A stretch of DNA of 64,000 nucleotides from a virus (IMGVR_UViG_3300038443_002533:1-64000), one strand, 5' to 3'. Positions 36,695-60,397 are shown, numbered from the stretch's first letter. Notes: a model not told the origin generated them from the letters alone. Translations and numbers: made by a program.

Positions 36695-36756
36695 CTAGGT
36701 GAGAGTTAATGGAACTCACTAACCATCTTTCATAACTAACAACGAAAGGAATTCAA

Positions 36757-36996
36757 ATGAGCTACATGTCCGCTAACAACATCGCCGGGATCTTCGACGA
36801 CGTACTGACGTTTCTCCGCGATAACCCCAAAGTGCCAAGAGAAATCCGTGAGGAAATCGAAGGCGCGTCTGAAGTCGTCCTCCAGGTCGGTAAAGGGTTC
36901 TTCTTCATCCAGTACATCACGGCCGACGGTATTCCGAAGAAATACCATCATTACGCAAACGGCATGCTGATGATGACTTCTGGTGTCAACAACTAA
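36757..36996 (+). CDS. Early hypothetical protein (79 aa)
   Basis: AACTAACAAC + AAAGGA leader. Confidence 0.8.
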   Translation: MSYMSANNIAGIFDDVLTFLRDNPKVPREIREEIEGASEVVLQVGKGFFFIQYITADGIPKKYHHYANGMLMMTSGVNN

Positions 36997-37016
36997 CAAC
37001 GAAAAGGGATCTCGCC

Positions 37017-37424
37017 ATGGCAACCGCAATCGAACTGCATCAAAAGTACCTCGAAATGGTTTCGAAGAATAACGAGCAGTATTGGTTCTTCGAGCTGAGC
37101 ACCATTCGTGTTCAAATCGACGCTGTCCTCCAGTTCGCGAAAGAAGGATTGGAGGAAGTTAAGCAAGAAATCGAAGACTGCGATGAAGCAGAAAAAGCGA
37201 TGCTGACCAGCTCTATGCAAGAATACGAGCGTGACATCGAGCGGATTCAGATTCTCCGTGACAAATACCTGATCCATGAAAATGGCTACATCGTGACCCA
37301 TCAAGTCGATGGTCCGCCCGAATGGTATTCGGGTGACGTCGTGTTCTTCAGCCAAGACGTCTACGAGGCCGCAGATGCCCGTGTGTTCTTCAACGCTCAC
37401 GCTCTCATCACCAATAACCAATAA
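37017..37424 (+). CDS. Early acidic coiled-coil protein (135 aa)
   Basis: AACTAACAAC + AAAGGGA leader; heptad-rich. Confidence 0.8.
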   Translation: MATAIELHQKYLEMVSKNNEQYWFFELSTIRVQIDAVLQFAKEGLEEVKQEIEDCDEAEKAMLTSSMQEYERDIERIQILRDKYLIHENGYIVTHQVDGPPEWYSGDVVFFSQDVYEAADARVFFNAHALITNNQ

Positions 37425-37441
37425 CGAAAGGATACACCCCA

Positions 37442-37777
37442 ATGATCACCCAACTCGATGAACGCCATATCGGTCTCGTCAGATTCGAAGGCAACATCTG
37501 GTACGCTGTGCGCCCCATGGAACCCGAGGATGAAGCGGGACTCTTACTCAACCCTATTCCGTTCAATTGCGCTGATCGTCGCGTGATGCACAACGATAAA
37601 GAAATGGCGGCGGAGTTGGTGCTGGGAGAACTCTCCGAAGCCACCAAGATTCGTTTTCAGATGAGCGAAGAGCGTTTCGATCAGATCAACCGTGAAATCA
37701 CCAAACATCTGCAAGCGGTGCGTGATTTCACCCAAGGTTGCATCATGGCCCAACAAGCCGGCTTCGGCGTGGGGTGA
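37442..37777 (+). CDS. Early hypothetical protein (111 aa)
   Basis: AAAGGA SD; operon context. Confidence 0.75.
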   Translation: MITQLDERHIGLVRFEGNIWYAVRPMEPEDEAGLLLNPIPFNCADRRVMHNDKEMAAELVLGELSEATKIRFQMSEERFDQINREITKHLQAVRDFTQGCIMAQQAGFGVG

Positions 37778-37779
37778 TC

Positions 37780-38109
37780 ATGAACGATGACTTTTATAGC
37801 CACGCGTTGGGCGTCATCGTTGACCTAACACCGGCTGAGATTCAAGCAGGGTTGGCGGCTGTTGAGATTACGGTCACCAATCACCATAGCGGTGAGTTGT
37901 TGTCGGAAGTACCGTTCGAGGAAACTTGGGTGGGCATGGAAGTGCTCGATGCAGCACAGAAATCAGGATCCATTCTGCACCGTATTCCGCTGAAGAACCT
38001 GCATCGTCATTCCATCAATACCGACGATAACTGGATCACGGTGGAATGGAAGAACGGCAAGAAAGTTTGTCTACCACAAAAGGAATTCAACAACGTCAGG
38101 GTGAAGTGA
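37780..38109 (+). CDS. Small beta-barrel-like paralog 1
   Basis: Start MNDDF at 37780; shares LxxVP[FY]xxxxVGM...W(I/L)x(V/I)xW with the next two genes. Confidence 0.75.
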   Translation: MNDDFYSHALGVIVDLTPAEIQAGLAAVEITVTNHHSGELLSEVPFEETWVGMEVLDAAQKSGSILHRIPLKNLHRHSINTDDNWITVEWKNGKKVCLPQKEFNNVRVK

Positions 38110-38348
38110 ACGTGACCAATAATTATTCGGGCCAACTTCTTTCGGAAGTGCCTTACCCAGAGATCCATGTAGGGATGAAACTGATTTCAGAGAAACTCAT
38201 TGTCGGGGAAGTGGTACTCAAAATCGACGAAGCCCAAATTAAACAATACGGCAAGGTCCCGCTGGATAATTGGCTGCGGATCAAATGGAAAAGCGGTCGT
38301 GAGATCGCTCGCCCTCATCGTGAACTTAACAACATCAAGGTGAAGTAA
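38106..38348 (+). CDS. Small beta-barrel-like paralog 2 (80 aa)
   Basis: GTG start overlaps the previous TGA (GTGA); clear similarity to paralog 1. Confidence 0.75.
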   Translation: MNVTNNYSGQLLSEVPYPEIHVGMKLISEKLIVGEVVLKIDEAQIKQYGKVPLDNWLRIKWKSGREIARPHRELNNIKVK

Positions 38349-38349
38349 C

Positions 38350-38898
38350 ATGCACAACCACTACGTCAATCAACCGCTCGCGCAAGTTCCCTACGACGAT
38401 ATCTTCGTGGGTATGCCCGTTAAAGGCGCCCGCGGCGTACCGGGTAAGGTCGTCCATAAGTCCATCCCGAGTTTCAGTGAAGAGGGGTGGATTCGGATCG
38501 ACTGGACCAACCACCCGCAGCAAGCGAACCATCACAGCTACTTCAAAGACGTCATCGTCCAAGAAGTCGCCCTCGAACCGGTCGTCGAGAAACGTCGTCT
38601 GGTGGTGAAAGCCAAGCTCTTTACCTTCACCCCGATCGCCCGCGGCGCGGTGATGCATCTGATGCTGTACCAACCGTCGCCGGCGACTCGCGCCGCACTC
38701 CCGCGTATCGATCCCAAAACCATCATCACCCAATTGTCGTTGTGGCAAAGAGAAGAGAGCACCGATGGTGACGAGGTGCATGAAGGTCCGTATGAAATCA
38801 TGTCGGTGTTCCGTGATCCCAAGAATGGTGACGAGGTCTGGCACGTGGTGTTCAAACACCTCGATCTGTGCGAGGAAGTGGCGAGGGACGTACCGTGA
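38350..38898 (+). CDS. Paralog 3 (N-terminal shared domain plus extra C-terminal domain, 182 aa)
   Basis: HNHYVNQPLAQVPYDDIFVGM...GWIRIDW matches the family motif. Confidence 0.75.
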   Translation: MHNHYVNQPLAQVPYDDIFVGMPVKGARGVPGKVVHKSIPSFSEEGWIRIDWTNHPQQANHHSYFKDVIVQEVALEPVVEKRRLVVKAKLFTFTPIARGAVMHLMLYQPSPATRAALPRIDPKTIITQLSLWQREESTDGDEVHEGPYEIMSVFRDPKNGDEVWHVVFKHLDLCEEVARDVP

Positions 38899-39455
38899 CA
38901 CGGATCGCCATCATCGGTACGGCTGGGCGGGATAAGACTAAGCCCATGACCCCTGGGTTGTGGCGATGGATGCTGCGCGACGCTTATAGCCGTGTCCCGA
39001 AAGGCGCCCATGTGGGGTCCGGGGGTGCGGCATGGGCTGACCATCTGGCGGTCTCGATGTTCTTGTTCGGCCATGCCGGTGAAATCACCCTGTTTCTCCC
39101 CGCCCCTTTCAAGAATGGTCAATTCGTGGAAGATGGTTGGAAAAGTGCAGGAGCCATCGCGAATTACTACCACCGCCAATTCAGCCGCATCATCGACCGT
39201 GATACCTTGGCCCAAATCGGGGAAGTGATCCGGCAACATTGGGAAGTCGAGAACAGCCCGATTCGGATCGAAGAAGAGCCGTCTTCTCCCACCAGCCGCG
39301 GTATGTTTGCACGCAATGCCAAAGTCGCGCAGATGGAAAAAATGTTAGCGTATACCTTCGGGGAAGGCGATGAGCCTGCTGATGGAGGTACGCTCGATAC
39401 CTGGAACAAATGTCAAGGTGAGAAAACCCACATCACCTTGCCGTACATTTACTAA
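38895..39455 (+). CDS. SLOG superfamily (YspA/cpYpsA-like) nucleotide-binding protein
   Basis: RIAIIGTAGR first strand; signature 'SGGAAWADHLA' (SGGAxGAD-like), 'MFARNAKVA' and 'GGTLDTWN'; GTG start overlapping the previous stop. Confidence 0.75.
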   Translation: MTRIAIIGTAGRDKTKPMTPGLWRWMLRDAYSRVPKGAHVGSGGAAWADHLAVSMFLFGHAGEITLFLPAPFKNGQFVEDGWKSAGAIANYYHRQFSRIIDRDTLAQIGEVIRQHWEVENSPIRIEEEPSSPTSRGMFARNAKVAQMEKMLAYTFGEGDEPADGGTLDTWNKCQGEKTHITLPYIY

Positions 39456-39469
39456 AGGAAGGATACCCG

Positions 39470-39781
39470 ATGCCTTTGTTTGATGATTTGGTTATTCGCG
39501 CTAAGCATATCGACGTAGAGACATCTGCACATGGCGCCATCAAGACCCTCACGATTCATCTGCCGGATGCGACCACCCGCGAACAACTCGCAACGTGTAA
39601 TCGCAATACGACCATCAACGGCATTAAGTTGGTGGATGAATTCGACGACGGTAGTCTCGATGAACATGAGAATCACGCCACCTTCAGCGTGGTGGCTTGT
39701 TTCACTGAATCGGCGCGTAAGAAGAATACGGTCACGCTGATCCTGATCGACCTCAATGTTGTATGGCGGTTGGAAATGTAA
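39470..39781 (+). CDS. Early hypothetical protein (103 aa)
   Basis: AAGGAAGGA SD. Confidence 0.7.
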   Translation: MPLFDDLVIRAKHIDVETSAHGAIKTLTIHLPDATTREQLATCNRNTTINGIKLVDEFDDGSLDEHENHATFSVVACFTESARKKNTVTLILIDLNVVWRLEM

Positions 39782-39787
39782 CAGATT

Positions 39788-39817
39788 CTCAGGTATGGGC
39801 ATCTGCCCATACCTGAG
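39788..39817. repeat. Perfect 14-bp inverted repeat
   Basis: CTCAGGTATGGGCA-TC-TGCCCATACCTGAG; no U-tract. Confidence 0.85.
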
Positions 39818-39929
39818 GAATGTTTCGATATGGCGCTAGAATTTTTCAAAACCATATAACAGTGGTGAATAGGAAAAGGAATACCTCCTTTATCCCCCTT
39901 GATAACTAACAACTTTAAAAGGATTCATC

Positions 39930-40286
39930 ATGAACTTCATCAAAAATCTGTGGAACAAAGTCAAGTCGTTCTTCTCGAATATGTTCAGCCGCAAAGCTGA
40001 AGCCAAGATCGAGACCGTCACTACCCCGGCAGCAGTGGCTCCGGTTGCCGCTACCCCGGTCGAGTCCGTTACCGCTGAAGTCGCGGCTGACGACAACACT
40101 GCTAAAGAAGCCCGCATCACTGAGCTTTTCAACAGCATCATGGGTCTGGCCAAGTTCCGTAACTATTCGCTGACCGAAGCCTTCCATGCTGCTCGTGAAG
40201 GTGATGAAGCGACCCTGGCGCGCATCGAACACGAAATGAACATCAAGAAGTACAAAGCTCCGAAGCACAACCGCAAAGCTGCTTAA
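39930..40286 (+). CDS. Amphipathic-N-terminus array gene 1 (118 aa)
   Basis: MNFIKNLWNKVKSFFSNMF; AACTAACAAC/AAAAGGA leader. Confidence 0.85.
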   Translation: MNFIKNLWNKVKSFFSNMFSRKAEAKIETVTTPAAVAPVAATPVESVTAEVAADDNTAKEARITELFNSIMGLAKFRNYSLTEAFHAAREGDEATLARIEHEMNIKKYKAPKHNRKAA

Positions 40287-40331
40287 TCTTTCCCCGCCGT
40301 CCAATCCATAACTAACAACAAGGATATCATC

Positions 40332-40733
40332 ATGTTTGCTTTTCTGAAGAATCTGTACAACCGCCTGGTCGATCGCTTGGCTTGGGCTCACACCAAGATC
40401 ACCCGTTACGCGGTCCGCCTCGCCATTCGCGCTAACGGACTCGACTTTGATCGTCGCACCGGAAAAGGTGGGGTGCCTTTCATCGTGACGTTTGCTCAAC
40501 GCGCCGCTGGCTTTCTGTTGTATGTTCTCGGTTTCGTCGTATGTGTGCTGGTCCCCACGTTCTTGATGACTTACGTGGTAACGACTTTGGTGTCGTTGCT
40601 GCTGGGTCAAGTCATCGGTGGCGTGATTGGCTTCCTGATCGGTTCGGCTTTCGGTATCGATCTGGTGTTTGTGACCCAGCGCGTTGAGCGCACCCTGCGT
40701 GAACTGAATGCACAATTCGGCTACGCCGCTTAA
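40332..40733 (+). CDS. Array gene 2, membrane protein (133 aa)
   Basis: MFAFLKNLYNRLVDRLAW plus two long hydrophobic segments. Confidence 0.85.
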   Translation: MFAFLKNLYNRLVDRLAWAHTKITRYAVRLAIRANGLDFDRRTGKGGVPFIVTFAQRAAGFLLYVLGFVVCVLVPTFLMTYVVTTLVSLLLGQVIGGVIGFLIGSAFGIDLVFVTQRVERTLRELNAQFGYAA

Positions 40734-40763
40734 TCTTCTTACAATTAACAACAAGGATCAATC

Positions 40764-41249
40764 ATGAACTACCTCCGCAATCTCTGGGCCGGCATCAAAG
40801 CATTCTTCTCGCGTATCTTCGGCAAGAAAACCCGCCCGGTTGAAGTGTATGAATCGAAAGATGAAGCACCGAAAGAAGTCAAGGTGTTCGATACGACGCT
40901 GGCCTTCGAAGCCGCTTACAACGAGGCCGAAGAAATCGAATACAAGGCTGAGTGGAACAACGGCACCGGTTACTACGACCACGCAGCTGAAGGCAACCAT
41001 GCTCCGAAGCTGGAAGTCGGCCAAATCGTCAAAGCCCATAGCCCGTACCCAAACAACCGCAAGTTGCTGATTGTCGGTACCGAACTGGGTAATGTCGTGA
41101 TCTTCGAACGTTACACGGCCGGCGCCCATGGCGTTTATGTGTGGAATGCAGCCGCTCAGTTCGAACGCGCTTACGGCGATAAGTTGGAGCGTCCGCTGAC
41201 GGCTGGTAACATCCGCTTCATCCTGAGCCTGGCCAAAGTCCCGGCTTAA
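40764..41249 (+). CDS. Array gene 3, soluble domain behind an amphipathic helix (161 aa)
   Basis: MNYLRNLWAGIKAFFSRIF; domain related to the 44991-45728 product. Confidence 0.85.
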   Translation: MNYLRNLWAGIKAFFSRIFGKKTRPVEVYESKDEAPKEVKVFDTTLAFEAAYNEAEEIEYKAEWNNGTGYYDHAAEGNHAPKLEVGQIVKAHSPYPNNRKLLIVGTELGNVVIFERYTAGAHGVYVWNAAAQFERAYGDKLERPLTAGNIRFILSLAKVPA

Positions 41250-41291
41250 TCCATTCGTAGCCCAATCTCGAACTAACAACAAGGAACTATC

Positions 41292-41702
41292 ATGAACCAA
41301 TTCTTCACCCGCATCTGGAACCACATCAAAGACGGCTACTGCTTCGCTCGCGATTACATCGCCAACAAAGTCGCCAAGATCGATCTGTACGGCGATCGTC
41401 TGATCGCACAAGCCGTAGCGGAGGACAGCTTCACCAAGCGTCTGCAAGGCATGCTGTGCAAAGTCGCCGCCTTCGTTCTGGCTTTCTTCACGGCCTTCAC
41501 CGCCGGTTACATCATCGGCATGGTGTTCGGTCTGCTGCTCGGCCCGATCCTGGGCTTGATCGCCATCCCGCTGGCTTACATGGTCGGTGAAGATTTCGGC
41601 AGCGCCATCACCCGCGCTCAGCTGAAGATCCGTATCGCTAATCTGTTCGCCAAAGAAGTGCGCGTGACGGAAGTCGAAGACATCGCTTTCGCGGCCGCCT
41701 AA
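41292..41702 (+). CDS. Array gene 4, membrane protein (136 aa)
   Basis: MNQFFTRIWNHIKDGY plus a hydrophobic hairpin. Confidence 0.85.
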   Translation: MNQFFTRIWNHIKDGYCFARDYIANKVAKIDLYGDRLIAQAVAEDSFTKRLQGMLCKVAAFVLAFFTAFTAGYIIGMVFGLLLGPILGLIAIPLAYMVGEDFGSAITRAQLKIRIANLFAKEVRVTEVEDIAFAAA

Positions 41703-41746
41703 ACAACACGGGGAACTCCGGTTCCCCATCTTTAAGGAATCTCTTC

Positions 41747-42112
41747 ATGAACTTCATCAAGAAATGGTACAAGCGCATCGTCGGTTGGCTGGCTGCCCCG
41801 ATCGCGCAAGCCATGGATTTGGTTGCCGAGTATACGGCACCGCTCATCGCTGTCACTAACGGCATCAAGATCGACTGGTCCTGGCGTCTGCTCGGTCGTC
41901 TGTGCCTGGCGGGTCTGGTGTTGTTGGGCGCGATGATCTACGTCGCCTTTGGCATTATCCTGTCCATCGCCGGCCTGACTCTGCTGTTCGGCTTACTGCT
42001 GAACCCACTGGTGGCTAACATCCTCGCCCTGATGGGCGTGGGCTATGTGGCGTACGACGTGGTCAAAGCAATCGATGTTCAGCGCGCCGATGTCGCCGCT
42101 GAGCCCACTTAA
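41747..42112 (+). CDS. Array gene 5, membrane protein (121 aa)
   Basis: MNFIKKWYKRIVGWL plus 2-3 hydrophobic segments. Confidence 0.85.
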   Translation: MNFIKKWYKRIVGWLAAPIAQAMDLVAEYTAPLIAVTNGIKIDWSWRLLGRLCLAGLVLLGAMIYVAFGIILSIAGLTLLFGLLLNPLVANILALMGVGYVAYDVVKAIDVQRADVAAEPT

Positions 42113-42130
42113 TTCCTCAAGGATAGCAAC

Positions 42131-42493
42131 ATGGACTTCATCAAGAAACTCATCATGGGTGCGGCGAAACTTGCATACGGCATCTTCATCGCTCCGATCG
42201 TCGAACTGAAGAACCTTCTCAAGAAAACCGCTGCCGAGAAAGTGCTGACGGTACTGAACGCTGCGTCGCGGGTGATCATCCTCGCTTCGTGGTTCACCGC
42301 TGTGCCGGCATTGCTGGTCACCCTGGCCTGGGTGTGGTTCTGGATCTCGTTGGTCTTCGCGTTCGTCTGCCTGGGCTTTGCCATCGCCGGCGGTGGTCTG
42401 GGCATGGCGCTGGTCATGGCTGCGATCAAAGCCCGCACCGAACAAGACGTCGAAGCACCCGTGGCTGACATCGCTGAACCGGTCTTCGCCTAA
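42131..42493 (+). CDS. Array gene 6, membrane protein (120 aa)
   Basis: MDFIKKLIMGAAKLAY plus a hydrophobic hairpin. Confidence 0.85.
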   Translation: MDFIKKLIMGAAKLAYGIFIAPIVELKNLLKKTAAEKVLTVLNAASRVIILASWFTAVPALLVTLAWVWFWISLVFAFVCLGFAIAGGGLGMALVMAAIKARTEQDVEAPVADIAEPVFA

Positions 42494-42499
42494 AGCATC

Positions 42500-42772
42500 A
42501 TGCGGCACTTTCTGAAAACCTTAGCCCAAGCCATCTACCGTCACACGGTGGGTGGCCTGGTGCGGTTATGCCGTCATACGCAGACTGCTTGCGTGGATGA
42601 AGAAGACAAACGGTACGTGGGACGCCTCGTGCTGTACAGTGCTTTCTGCCTCTGCGCGTGGTGGTTTCCCGGCGCGGCAGCGATTCTGCTGACGTTACGC
42701 ATCATGGCTTTCGGTGATTTCCTCACCATCGTCAGTAACATTTATCAACAAACGGCCAACGCCTACACCTGA
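42500..42772 (+). CDS. Array gene 7, membrane protein (90 aa)
   Basis: MRHFLKTLAQAIYRH plus a hydrophobic C-terminal half. Confidence 0.7.
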   Translation: MRHFLKTLAQAIYRHTVGGLVRLCRHTQTACVDEEDKRYVGRLVLYSAFCLCAWWFPGAAAILLTLRIMAFGDFLTIVSNIYQQTANAYT

Positions 42773-42811
42773 CTTCAGGGGTGGGCAGTTGTCCACCTTT
42801 CTGGAGTGATC

Positions 42812-43111
42812 ATGCGGAAGCTGTTTGGTTTCATCAAGCATTTGTTCTTCGCAGCGAAAGTCATCGTCGGTGCCGTTGTGGCGCCGGTGGTGTCTCTGGT
42901 TGCGACCACCCTGCAAGCTAAGCCGATCAGCTTAGGTCAGCTGACCTTTGCGTTCTGGCGGCTGTTGGTGTGGCTGTTCTTCGTCCTGTGTGCCACGACC
43001 TCGGTCGGCGTGCCTCCCCTGATCGCCCTGCTGTTCTTGGCAGATCTGGCAATCGTCGGGGTGCAAATCGTCGGTGGCGTGGTACTTCAACTTAAGGAGT
43101 CACCAGCATGA
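42812..43111 (+). CDS. Array gene 8, membrane protein (99 aa)
   Basis: MRKLFGFIKHLFFAAKV; GGAG SD; very hydrophobic. Confidence 0.8.
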   Translation: MRKLFGFIKHLFFAAKVIVGAVVAPVVSLVATTLQAKPISLGQLTFAFWRLLVWLFFVLCATTSVGVPPLIALLFLADLAIVGVQIVGGVVLQLKESPA

Positions 43112-43464
43112 ACCAATTCATCGACACCCTCTCGGTGTTCATCGGCAACATCCTGCGCCTGAAGCCCACGGGTTGGCAGGAAGCCCGTCGCGTGGCAGCC
43201 CAGATGCGGCAAACCCGTCTCGAATTCAAACCGTCCAAAGTGGTGATCGACGGCGAAGAAACGGATGTGGTGGCACCGCATTCCCCGCTCGCGTATCTGG
43301 GCGAAGCAGTCCTCGACGCGCTGGGTTTCGTCGGCGTCGTCTGGCTGATCCACAAAATCGTGATGGGGTTCCTCGTCGCATTGCCATGGTTGTTGGTGAT
43401 CGCGGCGCTCGGTCTCATCCTCCGGGCCAGCGGGAGTAAGTCGCCCGAACCCCAGGTATCGTGA
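43108..43464 (+). CDS. Array gene 9, membrane protein (118 aa)
   Basis: MNQFIDTLSVFIGNIL; AAGGAG SD; C-terminal hydrophobic hairpin. Confidence 0.8.
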   Translation: MNQFIDTLSVFIGNILRLKPTGWQEARRVAAQMRQTRLEFKPSKVVIDGEETDVVAPHSPLAYLGEAVLDALGFVGVVWLIHKIVMGFLVALPWLLVIAALGLILRASGSKSPEPQVS

Positions 43465-43517
43465 ATCTCATTCAAGTCAATCAACGTACTTATCAAGTCA
43501 ATAAAAGGAAACGAATC

Positions 43518-44225
43518 ATGCAATCCATCAATCAAGCCAAAGAAGCCACCCGTCAACCGTCGGCCAAGGAACTGAACCACTCGTTCACCGTGGTCAAAAG
43601 CCAGCTCACTGAGCTGCGCAAAAAGCTCCACACCGCCCAAGGTGAAGAGCGCCGCAACATCGAGTGCGAAATCACCACGCTGCTCAAGTCGATCGGCCTG
43701 GAACACGTCGAACTCGAAGTGCGCACCGACGGCGCCCCGGAAGCCGACACCACCAGCATCGGTGCCAAGATCGCCGTGGCGCTCCAGGACGCTACGACGG
43801 AAGCGGCCAAGCACGTCCCCGAGACCGCGTCGAGCGACGCTGCCGCTGCTCAACCCGGCCTGTGGGCCCGCTTCAAGGCCTGGGTCAGTGCGAACAAAAA
43901 GAAGACCATCGCCGGTGGTCTGGCCGTACTCACCGGCGCTGCCGGCCTGTGGCTCTGGCTGCGTGGTAAAAATATCAGCACTGCTGTATCGTCTGTGTCC
44001 GGCATGACGGAAGTGCCGAGCACCGACACGCTCCCGCTCCCAGCGGAAACCAGCGACGCATCGATCTTCGCTCGCGCTGGCGAGTGGATCGTGCACGCCG
44101 CCGGCGTCGTCAAAACCTGGGGGATCTCGGCCTGGAACTGGGTCAAAGGTCTGTTTAACCGCACCACCACCGCAACGGAGGTAACTGTTGAAAGCGCACC
44201 TGAAGCTGTTCCCGCTGGCGCCTAA
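43518..44225 (+). CDS. Array gene 10, coiled-coil plus single-TM protein with internal amphipathic helices (235 aa)
   Basis: AAAAGGA SD at ATG 43518; TM IAGGLAVLTGAAGLWLWL; Trp-rich helices GLWARFKAWV and ISAWNWVKGLF. Confidence 0.8.
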   Translation: MQSINQAKEATRQPSAKELNHSFTVVKSQLTELRKKLHTAQGEERRNIECEITTLLKSIGLEHVELEVRTDGAPEADTTSIGAKIAVALQDATTEAAKHVPETASSDAAAAQPGLWARFKAWVSANKKKTIAGGLAVLTGAAGLWLWLRGKNISTAVSSVSGMTEVPSTDTLPLPAETSDASIFARAGEWIVHAAGVVKTWGISAWNWVKGLFNRTTTATEVTVESAPEAVPAGA

Positions 44226-44325
44226 GGCGATCCAGCATCCGACCGTCGGCCAAGTGCTGGGGTCACTGCTCATCGCGGCTGCTTTGTTTGTTGGCACGAA
44301 CGTGTTGGCGGGCAATTTTAGCTAA
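44188..44325 (+). CDS. Unannotated 45-aa hydrophobic peptide (array gene 11)
   Basis: GGAGG SD (44177-44181) 6 nt before TTG; MKAHLKLFPLAPKAIQHPTVGQVLGSLLIAAALFVGTNVLAGNFS; ends just before the terminator. Confidence 0.55.
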   Translation: MKAHLKLFPLAPKAIQHPTVGQVLGSLLIAAALFVGTNVLAGNFS

Positions 44326-44339
44326 GCTGTCGACCGATA

Positions 44340-44380
44340 GGGAGTGGGTTATCCCCACTCCCTCCGGTTGTTTGTTTTTT
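44340..44380 (+). terminator. Rho-independent terminator ending the array
   Basis: GGGAGTGGG-TTATC-CCCACTCCC followed by a T-rich run. Confidence 0.75.
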
Positions 44381-44406
44381 GCCCATAAAACACAAAGGGA
44401 TAGTCT

Positions 44407-44634
44407 GTGACTTTTATTAAACTGAAAGAGCAAATCGAGCTGTTACGATTGCGTCGACAAGCATCGCGCATCGCCGTGCGGTTGTATGAGGCGGCGACTG
44501 GCCAGGAAGACATTGACACGATCAATACCTGGTTTGACGTCTGTAATCAAGCCCAGACTGGCGAAGATGTAAAAGCCGGCATTGAAGCGTTAATGGGTTT
44601 GGCTCGCAACAAAGATATCACCATTGATCTGTAG
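44407..44634 (+). CDS. Hypothetical protein (75 aa)
   Basis: AAAGGGA SD, GTG start, helical composition. Confidence 0.65.
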   Translation: MTFIKLKEQIELLRLRRQASRIAVRLYEAATGQEDIDTINTWFDVCNQAQTGEDVKAGIEALMGLARNKDITIDL

Positions 44635-44653
44635 CGCTTGGCGTTATAGGTAA

Positions 44654-44935
44654 ATGGATGGAATTTACCTATACCACTATTTTGGATCGCTTATGCTGCC
44701 CATCATCATTGCCGGGTTGTTATTGTGGGTGGTGCGTCCCCGTACCAGCCCGGCCGCTACCTCGTCTGCCCCAGTCTCCCCACGGACTTTTCTCAAATCG
44801 CTGATTCCGGTGCGTCTGCGTTCGCGTCCGAAACGCAAAGAGAAATTGATCGATCTGATCGAGTATTACCACCTGTCTCCTTTGATTCATTCCAGAGAGG
44901 ATTCATCCATAAAAAATATTCCTTCCAGGGAATAA
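44654..44935 (+). CDS. Possible single-TM protein (93 aa)
   Basis: TAGG SD; N-terminal hydrophobic stretch followed by basic residues; atypical codon use. Confidence 0.45.
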   Translation: MDGIYLYHYFGSLMLPIIIAGLLLWVVRPRTSPAATSSAPVSPRTFLKSLIPVRLRSRPKRKEKLIDLIEYYHLSPLIHSREDSSIKNIPSRE

Positions 44936-44990
44936 GTTGTACAGTAACAACCTTGTCGATAACTCCATACCAACAAAGAAAGGGATCACC

Positions 44991-45728
44991 ATGCAACCGT
45001 CTTACATCAACGAACAGCGCACCATCGAAGGTTTCTTCAATGCGTATGAAAACGCTGAGGTCACGATCGCCTTCCGCACCCACTTCATGGCGCGTGAACG
45101 CATCGGCCGCGAAGCCAACTTCATGCCGATCGTCGACCACCCGGAAGGGCGTGTGGTCCTGAAGCCGGGCGAGATCGCCAAGATCCATGCCAAGCACCCG
45201 GACGAAAACAAGCAGTTCCTGAACAACCTGATCCTGGTGATGGGTACGCCCTACGGGGTGGTGGTGTTCCACGCCACCGAGAAGAACTTCGCCCGTGCCA
45301 AGAACGGCAAAGTCAATGGCGTGCTGCCGCACATGCACACCACGATCAACTTCACCAAGATGGCGATGCGCGTGTTCAAGCGCAAAGGCTGGCGTGGCTT
45401 CCTGGGTGACTTCGACATGAAGAACTGGGTGTTCTCGCCGACCTTCCAAGCCGATATGGATGAGCAGGTCGCCATCGACCGGCAAGCCGAACTGGAACGG
45501 TCGCGGCTGCACTACGAGGAAACCGGCGAAGGCAAATCGTTCGCCGGCACCATCGTGACTGACGGCCTGCCACCGCGTCGCCGCGCCCAGCACCCGACCA
45601 CCAAGTCGACGCAACCGCGCCTGACCTCCCATGATGTGAAGGAGAAGAATCCGTTCTTCAAGAAAAGCGACGTGGCTCCACCGCGCCGCCAACCTGGTCT
45701 GCACGCCGGCGGTTATCCGGCAGACTAA
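44991..45728 (+). CDS. Hypothetical protein sharing a domain with array gene 3 (245 aa)
   Basis: AAAGGGA SD at ATG 44991; strong codon bias. Confidence 0.8.
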   Translation: MQPSYINEQRTIEGFFNAYENAEVTIAFRTHFMARERIGREANFMPIVDHPEGRVVLKPGEIAKIHAKHPDENKQFLNNLILVMGTPYGVVVFHATEKNFARAKNGKVNGVLPHMHTTINFTKMAMRVFKRKGWRGFLGDFDMKNWVFSPTFQADMDEQVAIDRQAELERSRLHYEETGEGKSFAGTIVTDGLPPRRRAQHPTTKSTQPRLTSHDVKEKNPFFKKSDVAPPRRQPGLHAGGYPAD

Positions 45729-45745
45729 CCTCATGAGGAGTTATC

Positions 45746-45967
45746 ATGGCACGCTCTCAGAAACAATCGATTTCCGCTGATTCCATGCGGGATGAAGTTA
45801 ATCTCTACCTCGGTCAAGGGCAGCGTGAACTCGCCATCCGCCACTACCAGGAGAAATGTTCGTGTTCCATCGAGAGTGCTGTGATCTTCGTCAACCAAGT
45901 CTCTTCGGATCGTTTGCGTGCCCAACGTGAACAACTCCAAAAGACGCGTGAGCTGCATCTGGCTTAA
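45746..45967 (+). CDS. Ribosomal bL12 (L7/L12) C-terminal-like small protein (73 aa)
   Basis: RELAIRHYQEKCSCSIESAVIFVN resembles the KI.AIK.yRE.tG.gL.EAK..V pattern; GAGGAG SD. Confidence 0.45.
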   Translation: MARSQKQSISADSMRDEVNLYLGQGQRELAIRHYQEKCSCSIESAVIFVNQVSSDRLRAQREQLQKTRELHLA

Positions 45968-45975
45968 ATAGCTAA

Positions 45976-46003
45976 CCCTCCCTACCCGCGAGGGTAGGGA
46001 GGG
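45976..46003. terminator. Bidirectional hairpin between convergent genes
   Basis: CCCTCCCTACCC-GCGA-GGGTAGGGAGGG, then CGCTATGCGCTTTCTTTT. Confidence 0.8.
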
Positions 46004-46025
46004 CGCTATGCGCTTTCTTTTTTGG

Positions 46026-46835
46026 TTACCGATTACCACCAATCATGAGCGACATGTAACGCCGCATCGATTCCGGATCGTTCATGAACGCGACCTTGGC
46101 CCACTTCTCCGCCAGGTGCTCTTGGTACATCTGTTCTGCGTCAGCGTAGCTGTCGATGATCTCTTTGATCTTACCGACTTGCACACCCGCACGCAGTTCA
46201 CCGATATCGAGCTTGATGACGTAGCTGTTGTAGATGTAGGCTTTGACCGCCAACTCTACCAGACGCGCGAACACCAAATAGCTGCGGGCTTGGATGTTGG
46301 AGAGGTTTTCTTCATTCTCCAGCGAGCAGCGCAGGTACAGGTTATTGGGCAGGATGATCGAGTCTTGCACCATCACCACGTTTTCGCCGATGAGTTCGAC
46401 CTTGGTGGTGCCGACGTGGGGCGTGCGGATCTGGGCTTCCATCGCTGCATTGGCCAGTTGGAGTGCTGGGCTCGTGCGGCTGTAAGAATATACCCCGTAG
46501 CCAGATTGGGTGTTATACAGGTCCCCGTAGGTCACGTCGAAGACGCTCAGGATCGAGCGGCCATCGGTCATGGATTTGGGGATACGAAATACGGTGGTGT
46601 AACCGTCATCAACCGTTTCACTCGGCAAGCCCGACAGATCGATACGGGTCTCGACACCGCTGACCAGATTGCAGTCCACCAATACCCGCGGTTGCAACAC
46701 GAGGCAACGGATGCGTTCTTTGATATCGCTGGGTAGATCGCGGTATTGTTGATACGGTTCGAGAAACACCACCTTCAGGATCTCACGCGGGATTCGGAAC
46801 ATCATCTCGTCGAGAGCTTTGGTGATCGGATTCAT
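46026..46835 (-). CDS. Conserved jumbo-phage hypothetical protein, probably late/structural (269 aa)
   Basis: AGGAG SD; isolated minus-strand gene in the early block. Confidence 0.75.
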   Translation of the reverse strand: MNPITKALDEMMFRIPREILKVVFLEPYQQYRDLPSDIKERIRCLVLQPRVLVDCNLVSGVETRIDLSGLPSETVDDGYTTVFRIPKSMTDGRSILSVFDVTYGDLYNTQSGYGVYSYSRTSPALQLANAAMEAQIRTPHVGTTKVELIGENVVMVQDSIILPNNLYLRCSLENEENLSNIQARSYLVFARLVELAVKAYIYNSYVIKLDIGELRAGVQVGKIKEIIDSYADAEQMYQEHLAEKWAKVAFMNDPESMRRYMSLMIGGNR

Positions 46836-46848
46836 TCAATGCTCCTAG

Positions 46849-46869
46849 AAAATTACAGTGCTATATTAC
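46849..46869 (+). promoter_or_regulatory. Early promoter (TATATTAC)
   Basis: AAAATTACAGTGCTATATTAC; matches the phiKZ early consensus. Confidence 0.75.
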
Positions 46870-46933
46870 TACATTGACGTTAGTACATAGCATCTTCGCA
46901 TTTTCCTCTAACTAACAACAGAAAGGCAACACC

Positions 46934-60122: not shown

Positions 60123-60378
60123 AGGCGAGACTCATCGTGGAAATAGGAAAGAGAGGGTGGAGGTGACATACGATTGCCATCCGGATTCGCATTACAAAAA
60201 TACTTCGAGATGGTATCGCTTGAGCGAGGGATGTAAACTCGGGACGATGTGAAAGGGATAACATGCAAAAGTAAAAAAATACGTCACGTACCCCATTGTA
60301 TAGTGGAAAACGCGAACAGCGTCCCACAGTTCGTATTGCAGTATGCTCTCAGAAATCTGGCGCTAAAACATTTTAGCA

Positions 60379-60397
60379 CTATATCACTAAACTGATC
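60379..60397 (+). promoter_or_regulatory. Early-type promoter of the chimallin gene
   Basis: CTATATCACTAAACTGATC, identical to 20341-20359. Confidence 0.75.

Follow-up and report, generated by a model that had tools for sequence, protein, structure and literature searches.

The window analyzed here, a 64,000-nucleotide stretch of viral DNA (IMGVR_UViG_3300038443_002533:1-64000), constitutes the first 64 kb of a viral record that is 272,470 bp long and bears direct terminal repeats; its positions 39930 to 44325 are filled by 11 co-oriented genes on the + strand (g01-g11). Nine of these genes open with a common motif, M-[NDE]-F-[IL]-K-[NK]-[LIW]-[FWY]-x-[KR]-[VI], which g10 and g11 lack. As judged from the sequence, the motif is a cationic, aromatic-rich amphipathic α-helix under protein-level purifying selection, and it is a portable module on unrelated protein bodies. 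An earlier reading of the same DNA (hereafter, the original prediction) had quoted nine N-termini from this array, and all nine were present where it had placed them.

Gene content of the array and its phage

Reading frames on the + strand were chosen by an iterated codon model. Comparison with orthologues gave ratios of nonsynonymous to synonymous substitution (dN/dS) of 0.10-0.45 in these frames, and the JGI gene calls in related contigs concurred with the array genes. Long antisense open reading frames (ORFs) were considered as genes and rejected as shadows, since the codon model, dN/dS, and the gene calls of the relatives favored the + strand. The start of g08 was assigned to ATG 42812 (MRKLF...) and not to GTG 42806, with GGAG located 8 nt upstream and the orthologues in agreement, and that of g10 was assigned to ATG 43518. 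The most conserved member of the array was g08, with 89% identity to its counterpart in the related contig L003 and a dN/dS of 0.10. The coordinates of the genes and of the associated elements are listed in Table 1.

The genome of the phage encodes subunits of a split multisubunit RNA polymerase (phrog_3148 and phrog_2986), a phiKZ-type tail sheath, a DNA polymerase, and a homologue of chimallin (PF25677, 2e-20). Based on the chimallin gene and the split multisubunit RNA polymerase, the phage was placed in Chimalliviridae; judged by its gene content, it is a chimallivirus, i.e., a nucleus-forming jumbo phage. Its closest cultured relatives, Burkholderia phage FLC9 (45.6% identity in the DNA polymerase) and Ralstonia phages RP12 and RP31, are distant. 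The region was found in public runs from rhizosphere and root metagenomes.

Table 1. Features of the array and its flanks, in window coordinates unless marked as genome; L-numbers denote contigs with related arrays
Feature	Coordinates	Strand	Description
Hairpin ending the upstream operon	39786..39819	+	15 bp; RNA fold z -5.9; retained in both L002 and L003; one compensatory pair of changes (T>C / A>G)
Promoter-like element	39836..39860	+	CTAGA-N13-CATATAAC; member of the 12-site class
Leader AACTAACAAC before g01	39904..39913	+	further copies at 40310, 40743 (AATTAACAAC), and 41271
g01	39930..40286	+	helix, Ala/Pro/Val/Glu linker, helical domain of ~45 aa, basic tail ending in AA; soluble, no hydrophobic core
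g02	40332..40733	+	helix, then 59-aa hydrophobic hairpin with GxxxG runs; absent from L002
g03	40764..41249	+	helix, disordered linker, α/β domain; soluble
g04	41292..41702	+	helix, then hairpin with long GxxxG zipper; C-terminus AAA
Short GC hairpin between g04 and g05	41708..41729	+	RNA contig reads through
g05	41747..42112	+	helix and hairpin
g06	42131..42493	+	helix merging into hydrophobic stretch, and hairpin
g07	42500..42772	+	helix and short hairpin; 90 aa; dN/dS 0.24
g08	42812..43111	+	motif offset by 4 residues; probably three membrane helices
g09	43108..43464	+	helix, soluble stretch, hairpin; start overlaps g08 stop
g10	43518..44225	+	motif absent; one membrane helix between conserved amphipathic stretches LWARFKAW and SAWNWVKGLF (five-orthologue alignment)
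g11	44188..44325	+	45-aa tail-anchored peptide; other frame, overlaps end of g10; conserved in L002, L003, L007, L008, and L013
Intrinsic terminator	44339..44378	+	10-pair stem with 7 GC pairs, T-rich tail
Promoter-like class sites, window	39836-39860, 46845-46869, 60363-60387	+	
Promoter-like class sites, genome	20349, 70369, 128420, 180220, 193858, 218558, 233891	+	

The N-terminal helix and the proteins that carry it

Of 13,676 candidate starts, a regular expression derived from the set matched eight of the nine members and just three further sites. A leave-one-out test, which is non-circular and thus stronger than the regular expression, placed the left-out ninth N-terminus at ranks 1-4 of 316 genes with a profile built from the other eight, in all nine trials. 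The proposal of a shared N-terminal helix across a tandem array was therefore borne out for nine of the 11 genes. The 51 N-termini collected from all arrays gave the consensus M-[NEDQ]-F-[ILF]-K-[NKT]-[LIW]-[FWY]-x-[KRA]-[VI], with Phe in 48 and Lys in 37 of the 51 sequences. When this 51-sequence profile was compared with the genome, only the nine array proteins were matched, at their N-termini and with 13.5-26 bits, and the next gene scored 11.8. A 245-aa protein (genome 164932-165669, + strand), which starts with MWNFFKRLFGGGK and continues as a long charged disordered region and a glycine-rich GGGGSFDGGGASGDWS tail, was the sole N-terminal match to the helix profile outside the array, and this match was weak (8.9 bits).

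Hydrophobic residues of the motif occupy positions i, i+1, i+4, i+5, i+8, i+11, and i+12, and the hydrophobic moment peaks at 90-100 degrees, the periodicity of an α-helix. The hydrophobic-moment check suggested in the original prediction separated the motif N-termini from other N-termini, with medians of 0.59 and 0.30, respectively (Mann-Whitney p 3e-6). Additionally, the helix has a mean charge of +2 and contains 3.7 aromatic residues in 18, compared with 1.5 in other N-termini. Across codons 2-18, the proportion of synonymous differences (pS 0.40-0.63) was high and that of nonsynonymous differences (pN 0.12-0.29) low, indicating selection on the peptide rather than on the RNA. Residues 1-22 of g01 hardly varied among five orthologues whose identity is otherwise 40-73%. 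A tblastn search with this 22-residue N-terminus returned only matches of E ~3 within tape-measure genes, and a literature search for the string TATATTAC gave nothing informative.

Beyond the helix, the proteins had been described as dissimilar, which proved largely right. After removal of the first 20 residues and comparison of orthologue profiles, only g02-g04 exceeded the reversed-sequence control (71%, E 4e-5, vs 20%), and the other hairpin pairs (20 of 21) stayed at the level of reversed controls. Full-length paralogy of the array proteins, an impression given by BLASTP, was ruled out by this test except for g02-g04. The soluble proteins g01 and g03 have only their first 22 residues in common (50% identity).

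The α/β domain of g03 provides the best evidence for transferability of the helix. In the AlphaFold2 (AF2) model of g03 (mean predicted local distance difference test, pLDDT, 83.8), a helix at residues 3-18 is followed by a disordered linker (19-40) and the domain itself (41-156). Nine homologues of this domain in other contigs all begin at the domain, with neither helix nor linker, and one of them is encoded by a different phiKZ-like contig and not as part of an array; the only helix-bearing copies were those of arrays (the window, L006, and L014). These nine homologues indicate that the helix is a portable module, in line with the earlier notion of a common amphipathic N-terminal unit placed on unrelated bodies. 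This domain, which has WNNGTGYYD, PNNRK, and FERYT motifs, occurs widely among uncultured jumbo phages, and no known fold was matched.

Seven of the motif proteins have hydrophobic cores of 27-62 residues, each with at most two basic and at most two acidic residues, and the N-sides of these cores are rich in K/R, from which a tight hairpin with both ends in the cytoplasm is predicted. The original statement that most members carry transmembrane segments and that two are soluble held for these seven hairpin proteins and for g01 and g03; g10 and g11 are membrane proteins lacking the motif. The AF2 model of g05 (pLDDT 88) consists of helices 2-29, 31-37, 46-82, and 87-112; a prediction of a four-copy g05 complex scored 0.00 with an uncertain partner fold and weighs neither way on oligomers. 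The best structural match of the g05 model was an archaeal conjugative pilus (8dft_A; Z 9.5 (VIA), root-mean-square deviation 3.6 Å, 103 of 112 residues), a Z below the level meaningful for helical bundles, and Foldseek gave E 3.6 and template modeling (TM) scores of 0.37-0.39. We regard the resemblance of the g05 model to a conjugative pilin as a lead only: both would be small lipid-embedded helical hairpins, but g05 is without a signal peptide and its predicted topology is opposite.

Proteins g01-g10 had no significant match in Pfam or PHROGs, the best E values (0.004-0.08) failing the curated cut-offs by far. Foldseek searches of PDB with the g03 model gave no match below E 0.08, a wide structure search with it gave a best Z of 4.1, and BFVD returned unnamed viral proteins only; for the g05 model, Foldseek yielded nothing significant, and an Atlas shape search was non-specific. 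Feature and structure look-ups of g04, g05, and g01 in the ESM Atlas provided no usable lead, and PDB sequence profiles of g01 and g10 gave no match. Elsewhere in the genome (133552-134877, + strand) lies a second cluster of small membrane proteins, which are single-pass and have conserved C-terminal domains containing Cys; this cluster bears no relation to the array motif. A lysis-pair candidate was also noted (genome 244531-245654, - strand), in which a signal-anchored transglycosylase-like protein (phrog_669 endolysin, 2e-11) adjoins a 133-aa membrane protein.

The opposite ends of the array proteins were also unusual in composition. Alanine is the last residue in seven of the 11 proteins (64%), against 14% of other genes (p 2.8e-4), and AA termini occur in 27% of array proteins against 4% of other genes. 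This pattern is kept in the orthologues of g01-g04, g06, g07, and g10. ClpXP and related proteases classically recognize non-polar Ala-Ala termini. By analogy, the C-terminal alanine may be a protease signal or a partner-binding end, and a role in turnover is speculation.

Probable transcription unit and distribution among related phages

The view that the genes form one unit was supported by the conserved hairpin and promoter-like element upstream, by a strong intrinsic terminator found 3' of g11 (44339-44363), near 44340 as foreseen, and by one root metatranscriptome in which positions 39853-44329 are spanned by a single contig of 4,480 nt. Parts of the array were also present in two other RNA runs from that study. 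The contig documents presence in RNA libraries and fits one transcription unit. The upstream intergenic region is 93% identical in three phages, above the coding-sequence identity, and an Rfam scan of 39400-44700 gave no match.

The promoter-like element belongs to a bipartite class, (GGCG)CTA[GA]A-N13-[TC]ATAT[ATC]AC, often followed by TAAACTGATC, of which 12 sites were found, all on the + strand, vs 3.65 in shuffles. A 26-nt twin of the array's element is located at genome 233867-233891, and one site of the class (60363-60387) precedes chimallin. Chimallin is an early gene, and because the element of the array matches the class found before it, an early class is plausible. These patterns suggest that the class is probably the early promoter of the phage and that the array is probably expressed early. 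AT-rich ATAT-type elements serve as early promoters in the related phage AR9 (PMC5312081).

The AACTAACAAC leader, which the original prediction had seen as shared by several members, is real and present on several array genes, but it is not specific to the set. Its variants, ATAAC[TC]AACAA(C), number ~40 genome-wide, without exception on the + strand and with a ribosome-binding site following 8-20 nt downstream (span in the window, 36734-46919); therefore, the leader is not a mark of the array. Its possible functions are those of a translation leader or of a second type of promoter. Folding of the 5' untranslated region (39862-39930) was predicted to pair GUGGUGAAU with AUUCAUCAU, which extends as far as the A of the start codon of g01, and to form a small AAAGGA/UCCUUU hairpin. 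A 9-codon mini-ORF (39830-39859) upstream of g01 overlaps the promoter-like element. Translational control of g01 by the modeled fold or the mini-ORF is possible.

A search of relatives, as had been recommended, found equivalent arrays with the same gene order in at least six further contigs from metagenomes, all belonging to a single chimallivirus clade (L002/L013, L003/L012, L006, L007, L008, and L014), three of them in contigs of 226-271 kb. The 5' half of the array is variable, with g02 and g03 missing in some relatives and g04 and g05 missing in L006, and g06-g10 are constant. A profile search of 1.84 billion representative proteins gave 17 matches of 113-149 residues, and all 16 that were retrieved carried the motif. 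In FLC9 and RP12, the array is absent from the syntenic slot, which holds unrelated soluble genes. Nucleotide searches with the 4.7-kb array region and tblastn searches with g04 and g10 found no match among 50,697 phage records, and a viral-contig scan with g03 found no relative. Because no counterpart was found in FLC9, RP12, or the 50,697 phage records, the array, as far as these comparisons reach, is an accessory, clade-specific module. The claim that no such module had been described agreed with the searchable reviews and papers on nucleus-forming phages, which contained none; a 2025 review and a 2024 preprint on the early phage infection (EPI) vesicle mention no transmembrane or amphipathic phage protein.

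Possible function of the array

We consider it about an even chance (probability roughly 0.5) that an in-plane anchor helix common to nine proteins gathers a lineage-specific, probably early, accessory set at the inner membrane. An uncultured clade of rhizosphere chimalliviruses would then transcribe the array as one unit, probably early, with products made for the host inner membrane. The 16-18-residue N-terminus would most likely lie flat in the cytoplasmic leaflet, serving as a portable module at the membrane interface and tethering the soluble domains of g01 and g03 to the membrane. In the seven integral proteins, where it precedes the predicted tight hairpin, the helix may function as interface helices do at the N-termini of small membrane proteins with two helices. 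The nine gene families, otherwise unrelated or diverged beyond recognition, share nothing but this helix, which would therefore probably bring the nine proteins to one membrane surface for joint action. The motif, its helical amphipathicity, the selection on the peptide, the modularity, the conservation of the array, and its presence in RNA libraries are shown by the data above; from these we infer the binding to lipid, the topology, the early timing, the joint action, and the role of the array.

Known N-terminal helices offer partial parallels. Bacterial cytoskeletal and division proteins (SepF, Escherichia coli MreB, and Noc; also PspA/Vipp1 with helix α-0) carry N-terminal amphipathic membrane-targeting helices that, like the array helix, are short, cationic, aromatic-rich, and movable, and these bring soluble domains to the cytoplasmic membrane face. 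No PspA-like gene was seen in the array. In contrast, the array has one helix type on nine neighboring phage genes, seven of which encode integral membrane proteins; its helix, whose membrane binding is putative, has no sequence or family relationship to these examples. The S1 helix of MscL and the slide helix of Kcv/KcsA are N-terminal interface helices of small two-helix membrane channels, which resemble the array proteins in length (~90-140 residues), in the N-terminal amphipathic helix, in the two membrane helices, and in the cytoplasmic location predicted for both ends. Unlike these channels, the array proteins have no Pfam match to the channel families at E <= 0.1, no pore loop, and a very tight hairpin turn.

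The set would most likely alter the cell envelope in a host-specific manner at an early stage of infection, e.g., to exclude rival phages or to counter membrane-based defense. Since the array is accessory and lineage-specific, such a change is likelier than a core step of nucleus-forming replication. The biogenesis of the early-infection vesicle had also been offered as a role. This vesicle forms before new protein synthesis. A core role in building it is unlikely and is disfavored by the clade-specific distribution of the array, which is absent from the FLC9 and RP12 slot and without a tblastn match in the phage records.

Several observations weigh against the anchor-helix interpretation. Integral membrane proteins need no targeting helix, so the helix must serve beyond targeting in seven of the nine proteins. 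In the AF2 model of g05, helix 2-29 packs beside the hairpin in a three-helix arrangement, which a structural or docking helix would fit equally well, and the motif of g06 and g08 continues into a hydrophobic segment that may be membrane-spanning itself. The varying membership of g02 and g03 between arrays speaks against a fixed complex. Moreover, the three RNA runs all come from one study, and their contigs are no proof of one transcript or of its timing.

Some of these points would suit a docking peptide, a helix that binds one common protein partner instead of lipid, with the partner being either a host factor (for instance, an insertase or a protease) or a phage protein, perhaps g10, and the operon encoding its clients or adaptors. 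The conservation of the helix is very tight (Phe 48/51, Lys 37/51), beyond the usual need of lipid binding, AF2 packs it against other helices, integral proteins need no lipid anchor, and the C-terminal alanine excess hints at termini read by shared machinery. We nevertheless consider such docking unlikely, as the composition of the helix is typical of interface helices and the helix is also found on soluble proteins within an otherwise all-membrane operon. Quite unlikely, too, is the absence of any address function, whereby the hairpin genes would be diverged tandem duplicates, the helix the slowest-evolving part of an ancestral three-helix fold, and g01 and g03 chance fusions of a duplicated 5' end. 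Such a relic would account for the common architecture and similar sizes, for the relationship of g02-g04 that persists without the helix (71%, E 4e-5), for the duplication of leader and start region together, and for the three-helix arrangement of the g05 model, but without the helix 20 of 21 pairs fall to the reversed-control level, the helix is retained on two unrelated soluble bodies across several lineages, and the helix of g01 is better conserved than the remainder of the protein. A further, rather doubtful proposal extends the anchor helix to a phage membrane-sorting code with turnover, in which the nine tagged products together with g10 and g11 would form an early protein-lipid structure at or from the inner membrane, and the Ala-rich C-termini would mark them for removal by host AAA+ proteases after the early phase.

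Two better-known phage systems fit the array less well. Small proteins with two to three membrane helices and glycine-zipper-like motifs, together with a faint holin match for g02 (phrog_526, E 0.045), recall a lysis-control set of holins, antiholins, and regulators that permeabilize the inner membrane at the end of infection. This assignment is improbable: no endolysin is adjacent, the endolysin-like gene being ~200 kb away; the promoter-like class is the one shared with chimallin; and nine to eleven genes far exceed known lysis cassettes. The transglycosylase (phrog_669) and 133-aa membrane protein at genome 244.5-245.7 kb, on the other strand, lower it further, as they provide a lysis-pair candidate elsewhere. 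The internal proteins of T4 (IPI, IPII, IPIII, and Alt) likewise carry a short N-terminal address on unrelated, tandem-encoded proteins in a variable region, which would make the helix a capsid-targeting propeptide and its carriers proteins packed into the head and injected. S/A/G-x-E is the consensus for cleavage by the head protease (phiKZ), and no such site was found after the tag in g01 or g03; in addition, integral membrane hairpins make up seven of the members, and the array shares its promoter-like class with chimallin, not with the adjacent structural genes. A head-targeting function is thus highly improbable.

If the anchor-helix interpretation holds, a 16-residue peptide may direct nine different proteins to the membrane, among them one whose soluble domain is made by other jumbo phages in a helix-free form, and this N-terminal peptide would serve, as it stands, as a tag in the search for more membrane effectors of phages. 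The array is a candidate for host-specific exclusion or counter-defense in soil phage-host systems. For nucleus-forming phages, which are studied for their organization of the infected cell, the operon offers a compact and testable case.

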